Source: Desulfuromonadales bacterium
Lineage (GTDB): Bacteria > Desulfobacterota > Desulfuromonadia > Desulfuromonadales > SZUA-540
Length of the DNA stretch: 64,000 nucleotides
Direction of reading: 5' to 3'
NCBI GenBank assembly: GCA_033549025.1
Contig: JAWSUS010000001.1
Span: 203,685 to 267,684, forward strand
A program made the position numbers and the translations under genes. Shown piece by piece: positions 20,606 through 30,366 of this stretch. The notes beneath the pieces are model-generated. The model had not been told where the DNA came from, searched no databases, and saw only the letters and a list, made by a program, of their open reading frames with translations. The stretch's first letter is position 1; each line of letters starts with the position of its first letter.

Positions 20606-22462
20606 TCATTGCAGAGTAAAAGTCCAGACGTCACTTTCGCTGACAGCACCGTGGCTGTCCTCGGTGACGACTTTCCAGTAATACGTCCCCGGCGCCAGAC
20701 CGTCAACCTGATATTTCACGATCTCAACAGGTGTCGGCGTGACGCTTCCCGAACTGCCACCGCCCCCACCTCCGCCACAGGAAACCAGCAACCAACCAGC
20801 CGCCACCAGACATAGCAGCAACGATATCGCGCCATGGCGTCGTTTTGACCACAGGCCCGCGCCCAGCAAGAGTCCGGTCCCCAGTAAAAGGATCGTCGAT
20901 TCAACAAGTGACGTGTCAACGTAAGTATACGGTGAAAATTCAGCATTTTCAGCATAAACAAGGGTTTCTGTCAAAGGGTCGCCATTGGCATCCGTTCCCC
21001 TCGCCCACTCGAACACCACCGAGGAACCGACAAGATCAGCGCCATTTGCCGGGGCGCGAAGCTGGGCGGCGACGGGGGGAACGTTGAGCTGCTTGTAGGC
21101 GGCGAGGGCGTTGACCAGGCCGTAGCCGTAGTAATTATCTGGACCTGCCTCGCCGAGATCCGTTGCCCCGCCTGTCAGGGCCCTTTCCAATTCAGCGGAG
21201 GAAGCGTTGGGAAAAGCATCGAGCAACAAGGCCATGACACCTGCCACATGAGGCGTGGAGAACGAGGTGCCGGAGTAAAGCGCGTACGGAAAAGAAGGGT
21301 CGTTGGTAGAGGTCTCGATATATTCGCCGGGGGCGGTCAGCTCGGGATAGATGGAGCCATCACAGGTCGAAGGCCCGACAGCGCTGAAGGTCGAGACGAC
21401 CAAGGTCTTGCTGACACTTCCCACAGCCACCGACTCCGGGTAATTTGCCGGACTGATGTCACCCGTTTGTTCTGTATTGCCTGCGGCAAAAACCACCGCT
21501 ATCCCAAAAGACTTAAGCGCGCTGACAGCTGGTTGGAAGTCAAGAATACATCTATTGACTTCGTCATCAAAGCCCCAGGAATTATTGACAATATCGGGAG
21601 CGTCATCGGTTGAATCTACCCCGTCAGGGTTAAGCATCCATTGAAAGGCCAGGAGTATCTTGGAGTTATCCGCATTCCCCTCGTCATCGAAAATTTTAGC
21701 TGCAATCCACTGGGCCGCCGGAGCAACACCAATACCGTTGTCACCCAAGATAACACCAGTGACAGCCGTTCCGTGCCCTGAAGCTTCAGGATCTGCGGGA
21801 TACAAGGGGTCATACGGAAGTGTCGTGTTTTTATACGGGTCAAACCAGCCGCCGTTTTCACGCCACTTGGCTGCCAGGGCCGGATGCGTCACATCAACGC
21901 CGCTGTCCATCACGCCCACGACGACACCTTCCCCTTCGTATCCTTTGGCCCACAAATCCGGGACCTTTACGGCGCCCAGGTTATCCCAGGCACTAGTCAT
22001 GGCAATGGCCTGAGGCGCAGGCGAACTCAGGCGAATGACCTCGTCATAGCGGATGGATTCCACCTCGGGCAGTGCGGCGAGGTCTTCTACTTGGGCAGCG
22101 GTCAACTGCACCGCCAGCGCGTTGATAAGCCAGAGGGGACGCTCTCCCGTTACCCTCTGCTGACGGAGATAGCGGATAACGTTCTGCTGGCTGCCGACGG
22201 CGTGGCTCCGGAGATAACGGATGAGTTTGGCGCGGGCGGCGGCCCGCTCTTCACATCGCCTCATCCCGCGCACCGCGAAAGACTCTACCTCCGGCGGCGC
22301 CGCAAATTGGATGATGACCGGAACAACCTCGTCCGCGGCTGTGGATTTCAAAGTACCCTGAAGCCTTTGATCCAGAACCGCTCCGGAGGCGCCGCCGATC
22401 ATGAAGCTCGTCATGAAAAAAAGAAGCAGCAACGCCGGGCCACTGTATTTTTTTAAATTCAT
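20606..22462 (-). CDS. S8 family (subtilisin-like) serine protease, secreted
   Basis: Signal peptide, propeptide, triad motifs MDSGVD / GHGTAVTG / SGTSFSTPHVAG, oxyanion AAGN; C-terminal beta domain with internal hydrophobic segments. Confidence 0.93.
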   Translation of the reverse strand: MNLKKYSGPALLLLFFMTSFMIGGASGAVLDQRLQGTLKSTAADEVVPVIIQFAAPPEVESFAVRGMRRCEERAAARAKLIRYLRSHAVGSQQNVIRYLRQQRVTGERPLWLINALAVQLTAAQVEDLAALPEVESIRYDEVIRLSSPAPQAIAMTSAWDNLGAVKVPDLWAKGYEGEGVVVGVMDSGVDVTHPALAAKWRENGGWFDPYKNTTLPYDPLYPADPEASGHGTAVTGVILGDNGIGVAPAAQWIAAKIFDDEGNADNSKILLAFQWMLNPDGVDSTDDAPDIVNNSWGFDDEVNRCILDFQPAVSALKSFGIAVVFAAGNTEQTGDISPANYPESVAVGSVSKTLVVSTFSAVGPSTCDGSIYPELTAPGEYIETSTNDPSFPYALYSGTSFSTPHVAGVMALLLDAFPNASSAELERALTGGATDLGEAGPDNYYGYGLVNALAAYKQLNVPPVAAQLRAPANGADLVGSSVVFEWARGTDANGDPLTETLVYAENAEFSPYTYVDTSLVESTILLLGTGLLLGAGLWSKRRHGAISLLLCLVAAGWLLVSCGGGGGGGSSGSVTPTPVEIVKYQVDGLAPGTYYWKVVTEDSHGAVSESDVWTFTLQ

Positions 22463-23820
22463 AGAACCCTCGCAAGGAAACCTCTGGTTTCAACCGGGGG
22501 AGGAATTGCGATCCGTCGTGAGACGGAAGGCTTTGGTTGATAGGTGTAGCCGTCAGCCTGATGCACGATCCGGCAGTGCCGGTAAGATATGCCCTGGATC
22601 GTTCCGAAGGCCGTCGCGATATTGAATCTGCCGCTGGTTCTAACGGCGACACGGCCCAAGTGCAGACCGGCTCTTTTGCCGGAGGGAACGACGGCTTTAA
22701 CCTGGTCACCTGTGCGAAACCCCTGCACGAAGCGAGCACTCTTGGCGCTGGTGCGGGGGATGCCGAAGCGATCCATACGGCACATCTGACGGCTGCCCCG
22801 TCCCGTGGCGGTGATGGATAAAGGGGCCTGGTCGGGTTTCAGTCGCACGGTATCTCCAGACTCACCCACACATGCCGCGTCAATCCAGTGGGCCTTGGGA
22901 TAGTGCAGCCCAGTGCGGTTGTACTTGGTCCGACCGCCAGACCAGAAAGAGACGGGTAGCCCCAGCGTTTTAACCGCATGGCCGATGGCGTAGCGGGTGG
23001 CGTTGACGGCAGCGGAATCATTGAGCGGTCGCTTTAATTGACCAAGGATCTTTTGGAGCTGTTCCGGCCGGTCAGCCAGAAATTCCTGCACGGGCCGATT
23101 GCCTTTGCGTTCGTTGCAGTCCCGACACGACAGGGTAAGATTACTGATCCGGTTGGAGCCGCCTTTGCTTCTGGGAACGACATGCTCGATCTCCAGCGGC
23201 ACATTCTCGTCCCCACAATAAACACAGCGTCGCTGCCATTTTTCCAACAGATACTCGCGAACCTCGTAACCAAATAGCGTCCCTTGCTGGTATTCCACGC
23301 CACTAATCTCCGGGTTCTCGGCTTTCTGCAAATCAAACCTCACCGTTTCGACCGCAACGCTGGTGATCGGGCAGAGTCGTTGCAGCCGCTTTGCCAGCGT
23401 CAGGACGTTGTTGACTCTGGACTGCAGTGACGGTGGCAACCAGCCTTGTGGCCGAGTCCGGTTATCGAACCGGGGCGCACGGTAGCGGGTCTTGCGATGA
23501 CGCCGTGAACGCCGGATCGCCCGACGGCTTTCGAGGGCTTTTTTGATGGCTGCGCCTCGGTGGTGCAGTTCCGCGCACCAGAGAACGGTATTGGCGGAGT
23601 CGTGGTTGCCTACGAGGGCAACACCGGTGGTCTTGCTGCCCGGATCGAGCTTGAGTTCGACCGATTGCACATCCCCGCCGGTGCGGTGCTTCAAAACAAT
23701 AGTGAACGGGTAGCGGCGATACACCGCCGCCTTTCCGTTTCGCAGGAGCATTCTGGCCCGTGCCGGCGAGCAAGGGGAAAGGGGTTGTTTGGTATTGTCG
23801 AGTACAAAGACTCTCTGCAT
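22459..23820 (-). CDS. iscB: RNA-guided endonuclease IscB (453 aa)
   Basis: PLMP-type start MQRVFVLD..PLSPC; RuvC-I LKLDPGSKTTG; Arg-rich bridge RRAIRRSRRHRKTRYR; RuvC-II VETVRFD; HNH CVYCG..EIEHVVPRSKGGSNRISNL..CRDCN; RuvC-III HWIDAAC. Confidence 0.96.
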   Translation of the reverse strand: MQRVFVLDNTKQPLSPCSPARARMLLRNGKAAVYRRYPFTIVLKHRTGGDVQSVELKLDPGSKTTGVALVGNHDSANTVLWCAELHHRGAAIKKALESRRAIRRSRRHRKTRYRAPRFDNRTRPQGWLPPSLQSRVNNVLTLAKRLQRLCPITSVAVETVRFDLQKAENPEISGVEYQQGTLFGYEVREYLLEKWQRRCVYCGDENVPLEIEHVVPRSKGGSNRISNLTLSCRDCNERKGNRPVQEFLADRPEQLQKILGQLKRPLNDSAAVNATRYAIGHAVKTLGLPVSFWSGGRTKYNRTGLHYPKAHWIDAACVGESGDTVRLKPDQAPLSITATGRGSRQMCRMDRFGIPRTSAKSARFVQGFRTGDQVKAVVPSGKRAGLHLGRVAVRTSGRFNIATAFGTIQGISYRHCRIVHQADGYTYQPKPSVSRRIAIPPPVETRGFLARVL

Positions 23821-24097
23821 CGTTGTACCTTTTAAGTACCGGGTTACCCCGGCTTTCTCGCCTTGCGGCGGTAAAGTCTCCCTCGGCAAGGTTGTGAAAC
23901 GGTTTAACGTAGACGGCACCGACGCTTTACCCAGAACGTCTTTTAACCGGCTACCGCAGAGCCTGGAACTGGGAGGGCATTCCAGGGTGCCTATTTCGTT
24001 TCCAACGTAGCCCGTCAGCGATCTCTCGCTGGTGGCTGTGCCCGGTCAATCCAGACTTGTTGCTACAAGCCTCTGACTTCAGTCAGGGGTGATTGAC
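22463..24097. mobile_element. Non-autonomous IS200/IS605-superfamily element carrying iscB and omega RNA (ISC/OMEGA)
   Basis: Left flank TTCAT (22458-22462). Left hairpin GAAA-CCTCTGGT-TTCA-ACCGGGGG (22477-22500); right hairpin CAAG-CCTCTGAC-TTCA-GTCAGGGG (24066-24089); terminal TGAC at 24094-24097. No terminal inverted repeats, no target duplication, no tnpA. Confidence 0.9.
23830..24097 (-). ncRNA. HEARO / omega RNA scaffold of IscB (guide would extend 5' into the flank)
   Basis: GTCAATC pairs with GATTGAC; hairpins CCCTGAC-TGAA-GTCAGAG, CTTGT-AGCA-ACAAG, CAGCGA-GAGA-TCGCTG; GGCTACGTT motif; CCTGGAA/TTCCAGG stem whose CTCCC loop can pseudoknot with downstream GGGAG; GNRA hairpins CGCC-GCAA-GGCG and CCGGG-GTAA-CCCGG. 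3' end approximate. Confidence 0.9.
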
Positions 24098-24628
24098 CGT
24101 CTGTGACCTCGCTGTTTACGGATTACTATACATTCTACTGCACTGTGCTCTCCAAGAACAGCCATCAAAATCATCTGACCAGGCGATACGGGACATCCGC
24201 TTTGCGATTTAACCGGATTGTTTCCAGCAGTTCGGGCAATTGACCAGTCGTTGGCTCATTCGAATGGCCTTCTTCACCTTCTGAAAAAGTCCGAGCAACC
24301 TCAATACTTTCTCACCCGTTGGGGCATTTCCCCTATGGCCTTTCAGCCAAACGGCAGACAGTTCCTAACCGCCGTCAGAAAAATCATCCTAAAAACCTCA
24401 ACAAAGATCTGTTAAAATAGACCCTGCCTTAAAAAGTTCGCGAATCCCCCCATTTCGACCTAGGGCAAACCCCCTTACCTGAGCATGTGGTCGATCAGCT
24501 AGGCAACCGTGCCTGACAACCCCGCCGAAAGAGCAGATCACCCTTGGTGCAGCTCTTGCAAACAAGCCTTTCGGCGCTATTATTTCAGGGTCATGCCCCT
24601 TTTTTAATGTAAGTATATTGGCGACATC

Positions 24629-25837
24629 ATGGGCACTTTTCGATGCAAAATAGGGACCGCTGACGGGCGGATCCTGGAAAAAGACCTGGATGCCGCCAGC
24701 AAGGGGATCCTGAAGGAGAGCCTTGAGGATCAGGGCTTCCATGTCTTTCGCATCCAAAGACGCGGGCTGCCCCTCTCAGGGGCCCTCAGCGGTCAGCAAG
24801 GGCGTCTGAGCAGCAGCCGCTTTCTCTCTTTCAATCAGGAATTCCTGGTTCTGCTGCGGGCCGGGCTGCCCATCCTGCAGGTACTGGACACCATCATGGA
24901 GCGGATGGAGTCAGGGCGCCTGCTGGAAATCCTGCGGGAAATCCGCGAGGATGTCAAAGGAGGCAGCTCCATCAGCGAGGCCTTCAACAGATTTCCCACC
25001 GTCTTTCCTTCCCTTTATATCGCCTCCATCCGGGCGGGGGAACGCACGGGTGAACTCCCCGTGGCCATCGAGCGTTTTATCGCCTACCAGAAACGGGTGG
25101 AGGCCATCAAAAGCAAGGTTCGCAACGCTTCTTTCTACCCGATCCTGCTATCGACGGCGGTGATTGCCGTGGTCCTTTTTCTCATGCTGTTCGTCATCCC
25201 CCGTTTCACGCAGGTCTACGCTGATGCCCAGGTAGAGCTGCCCCTGATGACCCGTTTTCTCATCACCGTCTCTCAGGGCATGGGAAAGGCAGCACCCCTG
25301 CTGGTGCCGCTTGTCATCCTGCTGGCTTTCATGGCCCGGGGATTTCTGCGCACCGAAAAGGGATATTGGCTGCGCGACAGGCTCAAACTGGTTCTTCCCT
25401 TTTTCGGTCAGCTTTTTAAAGACTATGCCCTGCTCAGTTTCTGCCGCACACTCGGCACCACCCTGGCCAGCGGCATCCCGGTGGTGCAGGCGATGCAGAT
25501 GTCCCGTGGCACCCTGAATAACCGCCTGCTGGAAGAGCGGCTGAGCCTGGCTGTCCGCCGGGTCCAGGAAGGCACCTCGCTGTCGGAAGCCCTGGAGGAG
25601 ACCGGTTTCTTTCCCAAACTGGCTCTGCGCATGATCGGCGTGGGCGAAACAGGCGGTTCTCTTTCTTCCATGCTGGAGGATGTCGCCATGTATTACGAGG
25701 GCGAGGTGGAAAAGAGGCTCGACCGTCTGACCACCCTCATCGAACCGGCGATGATGATGACCATAGGCCTGCTGATTGGGGCTATCGTCGTCGCCATGTA
25801 CCTGCCCATTTTCCAGCTTGCCGGCACGGCCGGCTGA
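24629..25837 (+). CDS. gspF: Type II secretion inner-membrane platform protein F
   Basis: LLRAGLPILQ.L..GERTGEL..YP; VGETGGSL..LIEP..MYLPIF. Confidence 0.93.
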   Translation: MGTFRCKIGTADGRILEKDLDAASKGILKESLEDQGFHVFRIQRRGLPLSGALSGQQGRLSSSRFLSFNQEFLVLLRAGLPILQVLDTIMERMESGRLLEILREIREDVKGGSSISEAFNRFPTVFPSLYIASIRAGERTGELPVAIERFIAYQKRVEAIKSKVRNASFYPILLSTAVIAVVLFLMLFVIPRFTQVYADAQVELPLMTRFLITVSQGMGKAAPLLVPLVILLAFMARGFLRTEKGYWLRDRLKLVLPFFGQLFKDYALLSFCRTLGTTLASGIPVVQAMQMSRGTLNNRLLEERLSLAVRRVQEGTSLSEALEETGFFPKLALRMIGVGETGGSLSSMLEDVAMYYEGEVEKRLDRLTTLIEPAMMMTIGLLIGAIVVAMYLPIFQLAGTAG

Positions 25838-25856
25838 CGATATCGGGAGTTCGCGG

Positions 25857-27590
25857 ATGAATTTTGAGCGCAAAAAGATCGGGGAAATCCTGGTGGAGAT
25901 GGGGAACCTCACTCCTTCAGAGGTTAATCTGATCCTCGAGGAGAAGGGCGACAGCTACCGGCGTTTCGGCGAAACGGCCATCGCCAAAGGGATGCTCAAA
26001 GAGGACATTCTCGCCCAGGCTCTGGCCCGCCAGTTCCGCATGGAGTATCTTGATCCCGATTCGTTCAGCCTGGATGCGCAGCTCTATGCCGCCATTCCCA
26101 CCGGCCTGCCCGCCCGCTTCAATTTTCTTCCGATACGGCAACAGGGGGATGCCCTGGTGGTGGCCGTGGGCGACCCCACGGACGTAGCGGCTCTGGACAA
26201 TCTCGAGGTTATTCTCGGGCGTCCGCTCATACTGCAGGTGGCGCCGGCCGAAAGAATCCATCTTTTTCTCGAGCGCGCGGACGGGGGCTCCAAGCATGTC
26301 CTCAAGGAGGTGTCGGAAGACTTCAAGCTGCAGCTGGTAAAGGAGACGGACAAGGGGGAGGAAGTGCTCTCCATCGAGAAGCTGACGGCGGACACCAGCC
26401 CCATCATTCGCCTGATCGACTCGACCCTCTACGACGCCCTGGGCAAACGGGCCAGCGACATTCACATTGAGGCCAGCCACGAAGGGGTGATCATCAAATA
26501 CCGCGTCGACGGCGTGCTCTACCGCGCCACCGAGCCTCTCGACGGCCGTTTCCAGAGCCCGATCATCTCCCGCATCAAGGTCATGAGCGAACTCGACATC
26601 TCCGAGCGCCGCGTCCCCCAGGACGGCCGCTTCAAGGTGCGTCTGGGCGGCAAGTCCATCGATTTCCGTGTCTCCATCATGCCCAGCAGCTTTGGCGAGG
26701 ACGCCGTCATCCGTATTCTCGACAAAGAGGCCATCGCCTCCGACCTCAAGGGGCTGACGCTGGAGGCCCTGGGCATCAGCCCGCGAGAGATAGAACGTCT
26801 GCGCCGCATGATCCGCGAGCCCTACGGCATGGTGCTAGTCACGGGGCCGACGGGCAGCGGCAAAACGACCACCCTCTATGCCGCCCTGTCTGAAATCAAC
26901 AACGATCAGGAGAAGATCATCACCATCGAGGATCCGGTGGAATACCAGGTCTCCGGTGTGGTGCAGATCCCCGTCAACGAGAAGAAGGGGCTGACCTTTG
27001 CCCGCGGCCTGCGCTCCATCCTGCGCCACGACCCCGACAAGATCATGGTGGGCGAAATCCGCGACCCGGAGACGGCCCAGATCGCCGTGCAGTCGGCACT
27101 GACGGGACATCTGGTTTTCACCACAGTGCATGCCAATAACGTCTTCGACGTACTCGGCCGTTTTCTGCACATGGGTATCGATCCCTACAACTTCGTCTCC
27201 TGTCTCAACTGCGTCGCCGCCCAGCGCCTGGTGCGACGCATCTGCCCCAAATGCAAAAAACCCGTGCACTATGATCGTCAAACCCTTGAGCAGTCGGGCC
27301 TGAGCTTTGAGCAGTACGGCGATTTCACCTTCTACGAAGGAGCCGGCTGCGAAGACTGTCACGGCATGGGCTACAAAGGGCGCAGCGCCATTGTCGAACT
27401 GCTCGATCTCAACGATGAACTGCGGGAGCTGATCGTCCAGAAAGCCCCGGTCACCCAGCTGAAGAAGGCCGCCAGAGAGGCGGGCACCATCTTCCTGCGG
27501 GAAGCGGCGCTGGAAAAAGTCTTTGCCGGCCTGACCAGTCTGGCGGAAATCAACCGGGTAACCTTTATCGAACAGGTGGAGCCATCGTGA
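25857..27590 (+). CDS. gspE: Type II secretion ATPase E (PulE/PilB family)
   Basis: ASDIHIE, PQDGR, GPTGSGKTTT, TIEDPVE, LRHDPD.IMVGEIRD, Cys pairs CPKC/CEDC. Confidence 0.95.
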   Translation: MNFERKKIGEILVEMGNLTPSEVNLILEEKGDSYRRFGETAIAKGMLKEDILAQALARQFRMEYLDPDSFSLDAQLYAAIPTGLPARFNFLPIRQQGDALVVAVGDPTDVAALDNLEVILGRPLILQVAPAERIHLFLERADGGSKHVLKEVSEDFKLQLVKETDKGEEVLSIEKLTADTSPIIRLIDSTLYDALGKRASDIHIEASHEGVIIKYRVDGVLYRATEPLDGRFQSPIISRIKVMSELDISERRVPQDGRFKVRLGGKSIDFRVSIMPSSFGEDAVIRILDKEAIASDLKGLTLEALGISPREIERLRRMIREPYGMVLVTGPTGSGKTTTLYAALSEINNDQEKIITIEDPVEYQVSGVVQIPVNEKKGLTFARGLRSILRHDPDKIMVGEIRDPETAQIAVQSALTGHLVFTTVHANNVFDVLGRFLHMGIDPYNFVSCLNCVAAQRLVRRICPKCKKPVHYDRQTLEQSGLSFEQYGDFTFYEGAGCEDCHGMGYKGRSAIVELLDLNDELRELIVQKAPVTQLKKAAREAGTIFLREAALEKVFAGLTSLAEINRVTFIEQVEPS

Positions 27591-28492
27591 TTCGACGCAC
27601 CTATCTGGGACTGGACCTGCATGCCGGCCAAATCGCCGCCGTCGCCCTGCGTCGCCAGGGCAAAGGCTCCCTGTTGACGGGATCGGCCACCTCCCCCTTG
27701 CCCATGGACATCCTGAAGCCGTCCCTGCGCGATCCCAACATTCTCGACCCTGGGGCCTTTCAGAATAAAATCCGCCAGGCTCTGGGGCCATTGGCCGGGC
27801 GGGAGGACCGCATCGCCCTGTCTCTGCCTGAAGGATCGGGAAGGCTGCTGCTGACGGACACGGATACGGCTTTTGCCTCCCACGAAGAAGGGCGTGACAT
27901 CCTGCGCTGGCAGCTTAAAGCCCAGTTTCCCGCCGACCCCAAAGAAATTCAGCTGGACTACCAGGTGGTTGGAAAAACCGAGGGCGGGCGATACCGGCTG
28001 GCCGTTGCCTTTGCGACCCAAAGGGTCCTGAGTCAGTATGAAGAAGTCCTGTCACAGATCGGCTTCAATCCGGCCCATATCGATTTTCACACCCTGAACC
28101 TCTACAACTACTACCGGCCTCGCATCGATCTGGGGGAAGATTTTTTTCTCGTCGCCATCGAAGAAAATTCCTTGAGCCTGCAGTTTTTCCAGGGGCACCA
28201 CCTCGGTTTCCATCGCAGCCGCGACATCGAACCTTCCACCGAAGCCCTCTTTCAGGAACTGCTCAGAACCCTGGTCGGCTGCGCCAAAGATTTCCCCAAA
28301 TCCAGCCGGGCTGCCGTTTATCTGCACACCAACTGGCCGAACCGGGATGAGTTGTCCGACCCTCTCCGCTCAGCCTTTGGGCGCGAGCCGATACATCTCG
28401 ATCCCCATATCGATCGCATGGGTTCCGTTTCGGCCCTCATCCGCCCCCAAGATCTGGCCGCCGCTATCGGCGCGGCCGAACGTATGATGTGA
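27587..28492 (+). CDS. PilM/GspL-like cytoplasmic assembly protein
   Basis: YLGLDL start, LDYQ, C-terminal AAAIGAA; position in the F-E-M-N-O-P-D operon. Confidence 0.75.
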   Translation: MIRRTYLGLDLHAGQIAAVALRRQGKGSLLTGSATSPLPMDILKPSLRDPNILDPGAFQNKIRQALGPLAGREDRIALSLPEGSGRLLLTDTDTAFASHEEGRDILRWQLKAQFPADPKEIQLDYQVVGKTEGGRYRLAVAFATQRVLSQYEEVLSQIGFNPAHIDFHTLNLYNYYRPRIDLGEDFFLVAIEENSLSLQFFQGHHLGFHRSRDIEPSTEALFQELLRTLVGCAKDFPKSSRAAVYLHTNWPNRDELSDPLRSAFGREPIHLDPHIDRMGSVSALIRPQDLAAAIGAAERMM

Positions 28493-28500
28493 GGCTTTTG

Positions 28501-29061
28501 ATGAAACCACAAATCAATCTCGCCAGCCGTTCTTATATCAATCGCCGGGGCCTTAATGCGCTGTACGCCGTACTCACGGTTCTCTTTCTTCTCCTGCTGA
28601 TTCTCAGCGGGCGCACTCTATTTTCGCTGCAGGCAAGACAGAGCCAGACCGAAACACACCTGGCCGAAGTCAGACAGACCCTGGGTTACCTGAAAAACGA
28701 TAAAAACGCCAAGCAGACCACCAGCGAGCTGGCGGCTCTGCGACAGGAAATCGCCTGGGCCAACGCCATACTGCTGCAGGATAGTTTCCGGTGGACCGCC
28801 CTGCTCGGCCACCTGGAAGAAGTCATCACGGAGACCACCCGCATCCGGGCGATTCAGCCCCAATTCAAGGAAGGGTCTCTCAAAATCAGCGGCGTGGCAA
28901 AGAACGTGACGGCTCTGCAGGATTTTCTCGATCGGATCGTCGCCTCGCCCCATTTTACCAGCGTCTATCTCTTCAGTCAGAGTCGGGTGGAAATCAAGGA
29001 TGCCGGCGGGCGCCCCCGCGAGGCGTTGAATTTTTCTCTCGAACTCAAGGGGGCCTTCTGA
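28501..29061 (+). CDS. PilN-domain protein
   Basis: INLASR N-terminus, single TM, coiled coil, LKISGVA. Confidence 0.8.
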   Translation: MKPQINLASRSYINRRGLNALYAVLTVLFLLLLILSGRTLFSLQARQSQTETHLAEVRQTLGYLKNDKNAKQTTSELAALRQEIAWANAILLQDSFRWTALLGHLEEVITETTRIRAIQPQFKEGSLKISGVAKNVTALQDFLDRIVASPHFTSVYLFSQSRVEIKDAGGRPREALNFSLELKGAF

Positions 29062-29062
29062 T

Positions 29063-29638
29063 ATGAGCAGAGAGCACCTGATTCTGACTGCCTGGAAGCA
29101 GAATAAATTGTGGCCAAGCCTTTTGATGGTGCTGCTGCTGGCCAATGTCGCCCTTTTTGTGGTGGGAAACCAGGTCATCGCCCCGAAGGTGATGCGCCTG
29201 GAAGAACAGCTGGTAAAAAACCAGGCGGAAGCCCGGCTTGCCCGCCAGCAGGGAACCAACGCCGCTACTCCTGAAAATATTCTGATCCGCGGCAGGCAGG
29301 ATCTGCAATCCTTCCGCGAGGCGATACCGGGTAAGGAAACATTCAGCGAGTTGATCGGCGATGTGTCCCTGCTCGCCAACCGCGCCGGCCTGGAAATTGA
29401 CCAGATCACCTACGCCCCCGAGGAAAAACCGGAAGAAAAGCTTCTGGTCTATTCTCTATCCTTTACCGTTTCGGGAAGTTACCGACAGCTCAAAAAATTC
29501 ATTCATTCCCTGGAGCACTCCCCCCGGCTGATTGCCATACAGGAGCTTTCCCTGAGCGGCAGCAGTGAAAAACAGCAGGAAGGTGTCAGGATGCAGATAC
29601 GCCTTTCCACCTACTTCACTTCGGAGGTGGAACGATGA
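29063..29638 (+). CDS. PilO/GspM-like protein
   Basis: TM plus VSGSYRQLKKFIHSLEHSPRLIAI. Confidence 0.8.
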   Translation: MSREHLILTAWKQNKLWPSLLMVLLLANVALFVVGNQVIAPKVMRLEEQLVKNQAEARLARQQGTNAATPENILIRGRQDLQSFREAIPGKETFSELIGDVSLLANRAGLEIDQITYAPEEKPEEKLLVYSLSFTVSGSYRQLKKFIHSLEHSPRLIAIQELSLSGSSEKQQEGVRMQIRLSTYFTSEVER

Positions 29639-30366
29639 ATAAAAAAAATCTGCTCGTGCTGCTGCTTGCCCTGCTCGGCCTCTCAGTCGCCTACGCGATT
29701 ATTCAATACCCCCGCCAGCAGAAAATCGCCCAAGGAAAATCGCCTGCCGCCAGAACCGCGAAGGATGACCTTTCGACCAGGGTGAGCGCCGATCCCGATC
29801 GCGTCCGACTCGATTTGCTGACCCCGGCCGATGAGTCTTTTGCCGCCCCCCAAAAAGATCTCTTCGGGCCTTTGTACCGCCCGGTGGCCCGCACCTCAAA
29901 GCCGGCGGCTCGCCCCCAGGTGAAGACGCCCGCGCCACCCCCTCCCCCACCACCGCAGCCCGTCCAAAAACCGCTGGCGCCCCTGCCTCGTTTTACTGTC
30001 CTGGGCTCGCTGGAAAAGGCCGGAGATAAACAGGTTTTTCTCTCTCTCGGTTCCGAATTGTATCTGGTCAGGCAAGGTAGCCGTTTTGGTCCTGGAGAAA
30101 AATTCCGTGTCGTCGACATGACTGACCGTCAACTGAGCATTCGCATGACCGGCGAAGACCGACTGATCACGTTGCCGCTGGTGGACAAAACGGCGGGGAA
30201 ACCCCTGGGGATCAAACGCAAGGTTTCAGCGCCCCTGCGTGAGCCGCTGCCGGCTACGGCAGAGCCGGTGGAACTGACCCTGCCTGAGAGCCCGACCCCG
30301 CAAGAACCACCGCCCGAGACTCCCATGGAAAGCGGCTCGGTTCCGTATCTGAAAATGCCCGAATGA
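29635..30366 (+). CDS. PilP/GspC-like proline-rich assembly protein
   Basis: N-terminal TM, KDLF, Pro-rich linker, FTVLG..VFL..YLVRQG homology region. Confidence 0.65.
   Translation: MNKKNLLVLLLALLGLSVAYAIIQYPRQQKIAQGKSPAARTAKDDLSTRVSADPDRVRLDLLTPADESFAAPQKDLFGPLYRPVARTSKPAARPQVKTPAPPPPPPPQPVQKPLAPLPRFTVLGSLEKAGDKQVFLSLGSELYLVRQGSRFGPGEKFRVVDMTDRQLSIRMTGEDRLITLPLVDKTAGKPLGIKRKVSAPLREPLPATAEPVELTLPESPTPQEPPPETPMESGSVPYLKMPE

Follow-up and report, generated by a model that had tools for sequence, protein, structure and literature searches.

How does a gene keep a start signal for translation when a transposon lies between its ribosome-binding site and its ATG? The question is raised by a 1635-nucleotide (nt) element in a 64,000-nt stretch of DNA from a Desulfuromonadales bacterium (assembly GCA_033549025.1, contig JAWSUS010000001.1, positions 203,685 to 267,684; this whole stretch is called the window). 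The element, an IscB/omega-RNA transposon of the IS200/IS605 type, separates the Shine-Dalgarno (SD) sequence of a subtilase-type protease gene from its start codon. Docking on start codons was found to be a real habit of the family, and this habit, more than the one copy, is the point of interest. Judged by sequence, a replacement ribosome-binding site at the element end is likely; it is not universal among the related elements.

Insertion at the protease gene and across homologues

It had been predicted that removal of positions 22463-24097 would place GAGGT, on the minus strand, 8 nt ahead of the protease ATG. The deletion resulted in this junction, and three other cuts, shifted by one base, gave other junctions. 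Two further statements of the original prediction also held, namely that TTCAT is the reverse complement of the protease start region ATGAA and that the terminal bases of the element are GAGGG and a 4-nt spacer, followed directly by the ATG. The protease 5' region was compared with 61 genomes, and long matches were obtained only in two genomes of the same genus, G001 and G002. The expected element-free junction was present in both; the expected continuation ATGAA was not, as both read ATGAC. In G002 (L003), the 17 bases upstream of ATGAC were identical to those of the window, and in G001 (L002) the spacer carried two substitutions.

A second copy, also 1635 nt long, 98% identical and with different flanks, was found in the source genome, G000 (G000:C2:278595-280229; L016, L019). 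It is inserted at a transketolase gene, of which no other full-length version was found in G000, and is flanked by AAGGAG plus 5 nt on one side and by the ATG on the other. Its own end is GAGGT plus 4 nt, and its empty allele was exact in both G001 and G002. Both copies of the source genome (2/2) part a ribosome-binding site from its ATG. The presence of two 98%-identical copies at different sites indicates past mobility. Contigs from the public runs X1, X2 and X10 departed from the window sequence at 24097, and X1 also at 22458, by which both element ends were confirmed in other samples. The filled 5' flank of the second copy was also present in run X2.

For the comparison across relatives, 135 homologous loci were gathered (L017-L151), some of them duplicate and some without a 3' end. 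With an end-hairpin rule, 94 distinct junctions were called and 6 loci gave no call. Seven junctions were re-called from GTG to an ATG in the linker and seven without an intact end were dropped (L030, L065, L069, L072, L094, L100, L120), resulting in a final set of 87 junctions that includes both G000 copies. The junction letters were ATGAA in 59 and ATGAC in 11 of these. As the junction rule requires an ATG, the other ATGA sites in the same flanks were used as the control. Frames of at least 80 codons were opened by 58 of the 80 evaluable junctions and by 348 of the 1963 control sites (Fisher p ~3e-25). When the empty sites were rebuilt, 28/42 were start-like compared with 120/1901 in the control, start-like meaning a long frame together with an in-frame stop at most 40 codons upstream. 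Both flanks are needed for this determination, and L024, L052, L061, L098, L111 and L114, pairs of which share the 5' flank and not the 3' one, were excluded from it. An SD-like site, defined by an anti-SD duplex of -6 kcal/mol or lower, was detected in the 5' flank of 21 of 42 sites and at 135 of 1963 control sites. The sites fall into 40 lineages and are not independent, so the p-values overstate the significance; with one site per lineage, a long frame was present in 26/38. The pairs L024/L052, L111/L114 and L061/L098, with identical or near-identical 5' flanks and different 3' genes, point to recombination between copies or to assembly chimeras.

In G233, seven copies share the element end through ATGAA and all diverge right after it, six of the seven opening long frames. 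Downstream frames with 45 codons or more numbered 68, and NCBIfam matches were obtained for 39. In thirty of these the match begins no later than residue 20 in the protein and in the profile alike, and they include coaD, glnS (twice), lepA, acetolactate synthase of the ilvB type (twice), tkt and fliJ. Eight of the remaining matches begin further in with no sign of a lost N-terminus, and one (L117) looks truncated. A Pfam scan of the downstream frames added further matches. Some host gene families carry an insertion at their start codon in more than one phylum, each time from an IscB lineage unrelated to the other; these are glnS (L055, L111), acetolactate synthase (L039, L050), a hydrogenase-4 membrane subunit (L093, L139) and plasmid parA-parB (L163, L164).

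Plasmids were checked with 24 of 54 matching records, hand-picked among the 45 matches listed to avoid near-duplicates. The regular-expression caller found the ends of 6/24; ends were set by eye in 22, and two records (L181, L182) had no recognisable end. Ten of the 22 junctions were located at an annotated RefSeq/GenBank start (9 exactly and 1 within ATGATG, at most 3 nt away), the gene table being incomplete. Junctions with ATG were at annotated starts in 10/17 cases and those with GTG in 0/5. The enrichment at start codons that had been predicted for insertions into ATGA-type targets was thus borne out by the long frames, the rebuilt empty sites and the plasmid annotations. Related elements ending before GTGA were L045, L146, L161, L176 and L184; L045 opens a 116-codon frame, and the plasmid cases miss annotated starts.

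Identity, ends and surroundings of the element

The features of the locus are collected in Table 1. The HEARO match scored 134.7 bits (gathering score 83) and covered the full model, positions 1-211, with model position 1 at base 24097. In the IscB protein, RRXRR comprises residues 4-180 and HNH residues 199-247. The RuvC/HNH motifs PLSP, KLDPG, VETVRFD, EHVVP, CNERK and HWIDAAC, which we take to be catalytic, are intact. A PLMP-type RRXRR N-terminus, a split RuvC with HNH and a scaffold directly upstream of iscB were all found, and every testable feature places the element in the IscB/omega-RNA (ISC) group of IS200/IS605. On the minus strand the order is omega-RNA, iscB, the hairpin region and then the ATG of the subtilase gene. 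No transposase gene was found within the element, no terminal inverted repeats at its ends, and no target-site duplication at the ends or in the empty alleles. In an Rfam search of 22000-24700 (E <= 1), only HEARO was matched and no group I intron, the mark of an IStron, was detected. Short gene-less derivatives were absent from G000 by blastn with both element ends, and a single-protein query of viral contigs resulted in no relative.

Table 1. Positions in the window of the element, its ends and the host gene parts
Feature	Positions	Strand	Basis
Whole non-autonomous IscB/omega-RNA (HEARO, ISC) IS200/IS605 element, 1635 nt	22463..24097	minus	Empty alleles, second copy, contig ends
iscB open reading frame, 453 amino acids, TGA stop	22459..23820	minus	Pfam RRXRR 1.4e-74 and HNH
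Omega-RNA scaffold, Rfam HEARO RF02033	23871..24097	minus	Begins at the first base of the element
TTCAT, left cleavage motif and TnpA target; read on the minus strand it is ATGAA, which gives the protease its start codon and is the predicted IscB target-adjacent motif (TAM)	22458..22462	plus	N/ATGA target (slash, insertion point) in the main text of PMC4810608; GstIscB TAM in passages of bioRxiv 2023.03.14.532601
Element-borne SD-like GAGGG, 4 nt before ATG	22467..22471	minus	Sequence; anti-SD duplex energy
Predicted left guide tetranucleotide GAAA (+15..+18), foot of left-end hairpin	22477..22480	plus	Fits TCAT by the IS608 pairing rule
Left-end subterminal imperfect hairpin	22481..22500	plus	Read from the sequence
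Right end: guide CAAG 24066-24069, hairpin 24070-24089, cleavage motif TGAC 24094-24097	24066..24097	plus	Sequence, fold, pairing rule
Host subtilase (Peptidase_S8) gene, 618 amino acids, frame intact	20606..22462	minus	Pfam; G001 and G002 orthologues begin at the same ATG
Host 5' leader: original SD GAGGT (24106-24110) and 8-nt spacer; now predicted omega-RNA guide	24098..24114	minus	Identical in the G002 empty allele; guide source per passages of Meers et al.
Candidate sigma-70-type host promoter directly upstream of the element	24125..24154	minus	Weak consensus match only

On the plus strand, the left end is laid out as TTCAT, a 14-nt linker, GAAA and the imperfect hairpin, and the SD-like GAGGG occupies this linker, which runs from the cut site to the left guide. 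The hairpin folds were modest, with z = -0.97 for the left end (22458-22520, not significant alone) and z = -1.59 for the right end. By the IS608 rule, as given in passages of PMC5934647, guide base 1 pairs with target base -3 and guide base 2 with target base -4. Both pairs were present in GAAA/TCAT and in CAAG/TGAC. Among the homologues, GA[ATG]A was present in 70/87 left ends, a value that is partly circular as the motif is built into the junction caller, and CANG in 51/54 right ends. In IS608-type elements a third pair joins the fourth guide base to the last target base. The pairing of guide and target at both ends indicates that the choice of ATGA is built into the element.

Of the six Y1_Tnp matches in G000, one is a tnpA beside a TnpB-like frame (L152:185-1890, G000:C8), a possible autonomous IS605 and candidate helper; none of the six was found to share the ends of the IscB element. 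A promoter scan of the region gave 4 consensus sites compared with a shuffle mean of 0.9. The C-terminal part of the subtilase (20606-21100) is unusual, as it contains two hydrophobic segments and, after a Cys, a run of Gly/Ser, and it gave no Pfam match. A terminator-like hairpin with a T run lies on the minus strand at 22425-22445, just inside the protease coding start, and the T run also occurs in the G001 empty allele. A divergent operon resembling type II secretion or type IV pilus systems (T2SS F, ATPase and accessory genes; 24629-30366) starts about 530 nt from the first base of the element.

Retention, targeting and the start signal of the host gene

The element end had been proposed to restore translation of the gene behind it. 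The anti-SD duplex of the element GAGGG was determined to be -6.4 kcal/mol, compared with -6.7 kcal/mol of the host GAGGT. SD-like element ends were detected at 54/87 sites. Among lineage representatives the number was 16/40; 300 composition shuffles gave 2.3 on average and never more than 7. The SD cores peak 8-12 nt before the ATG and their letters vary between lineages. The proposal is supported as far as this enrichment and its spacing are concerned; the motif is common and not universal, being missing in 23/40 lineages. The linker motif is probably kept by selection for host viability in many, not all, lineages. At the protease, the TGA stop of iscB overlaps the host ATG as ATGA (stop offset +1). 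This overlap, absent from the original prediction, may offer another way for the host gene to be translated; ribosomes completing iscB would open a paired GAGGG. The iscB stop was located at most 14 nt from the ATG or overlapping it in 17/40 lineages, a count that has no null for the stop position. An SD-like end, a nearby iscB stop or both were present in 25/40 lineages. An in-frame IscB-protease fusion was rejected, the frames overlapping at ATGA where IscB stops.

The start-codon share was compared with the ATGA sites of G000, in which a crude caller gave 2867 genes. ATGA was the commonest gene start (1104 genes). Called starts accounted for 3.9% of all ATGA sites and for 21% of starts plus intergenic sites. 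When only starts and the sites lying no more than 150 nt ahead of a start on the same strand were counted, the share was 57% (63% for ATGAA). The observed two thirds are not reached if in-gene insertions are purged and nothing else acts; when the need for an outside promoter is added, the observed share is nearly reached. For this reason retention is favoured over the sensing of start codons, and the lower plasmid share (10/22) agrees with retention, the plasmids coming from other lineages.

Survivor bias only, which we consider unlikely, would mean insertion at any TCAT, loss of the in-gene and promoterless copies, and a purine-rich linker that is a by-product of end structure or composition with no benefit to the host. 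The 57% (63% for ATGAA) expected under the retention filter is close to the 28/42 seen, the plasmid share is lower (10/22), and lineages lacking an SD are also found at starts; in passages of Meers et al. (bioRxiv 10.1101/2023.03.14.532601, PMC10055086), a preference for transcribed sites, either in insertion or in retention, has already been put forward. The linker argues against it: the SD-like motif exceeds the composition shuffles (16/40, maximum 7) at ribosome-binding distance, and its letters differ by lineage (GGAGG, AAGGAG, GGAGAT, GAGG) with the anti-SD complementarity kept. Moreover, housekeeping genes (coaD, glnS, lepA) stand directly behind the ends, so their translation probably needs restoring.

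Active targeting, in which the transpososome prefers initiation regions beyond the 4-5-base target, for example by pairing of the end with host SD DNA or through single-stranded DNA near promoters, is decidedly improbable. The enrichment, at least 10-fold over all ATGA sites, persists on plasmids, which have few essential genes, and according to passages of PMC5934647 an engineered extension of the end/target pairing can retarget IS608; however, the retention model gives similar shares without such a preference and half of the 5' flanks (21/42) have no strong SD. More improbable still is that the insertion silences or strongly lowers a dispensable protease and that the resemblance to a ribosome-binding site at this locus is chance: the subtilase may be dispensable, GAGGG is a short motif for which partial pairing is predicted, and processing may remove the omega-RNA from the transcript, with terminator-like minus-strand hairpins predicted within the element by consensus scan only, but in G000 the same element also stands before a transketolase gene of which no other full-length version was found, the reading frame of the protease is intact and the pattern is family-wide.

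Several results weigh against the preferred reading, that is, retention at start codons combined with a start signal supplied by the element end. No long frame was found at 22/80 junctions, and 12/22 plasmid junctions lie away from annotated starts. Around the six Y1_Tnp matches of G000 no TnpA sharing the element ends was detected. GAGGG is a modest SD at short spacing, and in the predicted mRNA fold the left-end stem is closed by its first G, the remaining bases being paired with coding sequence. By majority call, 23/40 lineages have no SD at the end; neither an SD nor a nearby stop was present in 15/40, mostly with T-rich linkers and often still at starts (e.g. L144, L151). A long downstream frame followed 40/50 SD-bearing ends and 18/30 of the others, which is a trend (p = 0.07). 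Among the contigs of X1 and X2 (DNA) and X9 and X10 (RNA), none bridged element and protease by 31 letters, which has no bearing on expression; in the same runs no contig joint skipping the element was found.

Known systems and a proposed mechanism

ISC transposons with an N/ATGA target (ISC1-1_MA, ISC2-1_HM, ISC2-1_MS) are described in the main text of Kapitonov, Makarova and Koonin 2016 (PMC4810608). Like those, the present element encodes IscB, is non-autonomous, has a 5'-GT end and subterminal hairpins, and is inserted just upstream of ATGA with no duplication. The words 'codon', 'translation', 'ribosom' and 'initiation' do not occur in that main text, and neither the link of ATGA with gene starts nor an end-borne ribosome-binding site is found there. 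For ISGst5/GstIscB of Geobacillus stearothermophilus, passages of Meers et al. give TTCAT as both the transposase target and the TAM. According to the same passages, the guide lies outside the element in the 5' flank, so that transcription must start outside; ISGst5 is co-oriented with upstream genes and GstIscB cuts the empty donor joint. The window element is like ISGst5 in its TTCAT target and in its predicted TAM, flank-derived guide and outside transcription for the omega-RNA. These passages concern orientation to the upstream gene only; a downstream start codon, a ribosome-binding site or a stop/start overlap was not found in them.

With IS608 of Helicobacter pylori, as described in passages of PMC3201880 and PMC5934647, the element shares a target tetranucleotide that lies outside the left end and is recognised by a 4-nt guide next to the base of the hairpin, a right cleavage motif inside the element, and seamless excision. 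In contrast, the IS608 target is TTAC, which cannot be a start codon, and IS608 carries tnpA and tnpB and no iscB. IStrons, which combine a group I intron with IS605 or IS607 (PMC4227781 and bioRxiv 10.1101/2023.11.20.567912), are alike in outcome, being RNA-guided insertion sequences that limit the cost to the interrupted gene, and may be regarded as the nearest functional parallel. IStrons splice out of the mRNA, whereas the present element has no intron, spares the reading frame and seems to provide an initiation signal anew.

Both the ATGA target and the reliance on outside promoters have been published before, the element type is well known and a single copy is ordinary. Start-codon docking or replacement of a ribosome-binding site by IscB elements was not found in the literature searched, with most subscription papers and supplements outside the search and a prior statement possible. 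A term search of PMC13180657, PMC9581776, PMC13565253, PMC9755519 and PMC11666462 gave nothing on start-codon docking; the SD in PMC9581776 is IsrB's own.

By analogy with IS608, a Y1 transposase acting in trans would paste the element beside a TCAT chosen by pairing with the GAAA left guide, the anatomy of which is observed. On the opposite strand the 3' end of the element would thus stand directly before ATGA, the commonest gene start of G000. Copies between promoter with ribosome-binding site and ATG would survive, since the host frame is whole and the host promoter may yield guide, omega-RNA and iscB as one transcript. At the protease, read-through would come from the host promoter, for which a weak consensus was found at 24154-24125. 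The guide would be the host leader with its ribosome-binding site and the TAM the start codon; as in the Geobacillus work, IscB may then cut empty alleles and favour the filled one. As the last cistron, the host gene would be translated from the SD-like motif of the linker and, at the protease, possibly also by re-initiation at the iscB stop/ATG.

The present element is probably a non-autonomous IscB/omega-RNA IS200/IS605 element with an N/ATGA target, of a group that is retained mostly at start codons. A wider proposal, which we hold to be about evenly balanced between right and wrong, is that ATGA-targeting IscB elements form a large cross-phylum group of 'start-codon parasites'. Their target/TAM would be the host start codon and their guide the leader with its ribosome-binding site, and the linker would have repeatedly evolved a replacement SD, an overlapping iscB stop or both, by which housekeeping genes are still translated as the last cistron. 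Such elements would be the splicing-free counterpart of IStrons, and the habit would be the ecological reason for the common ATGA-type TAM of Cas9 ancestors.

If this is true, the ATGA target and TAM in a widespread group of Cas9 ancestors would be explained. The promoter for the guide RNA would be gained from the host without breaking a gene, and the persistence of the elements before housekeeping genes would be accounted for. Host genes would then be under the translational control of a transposon end.

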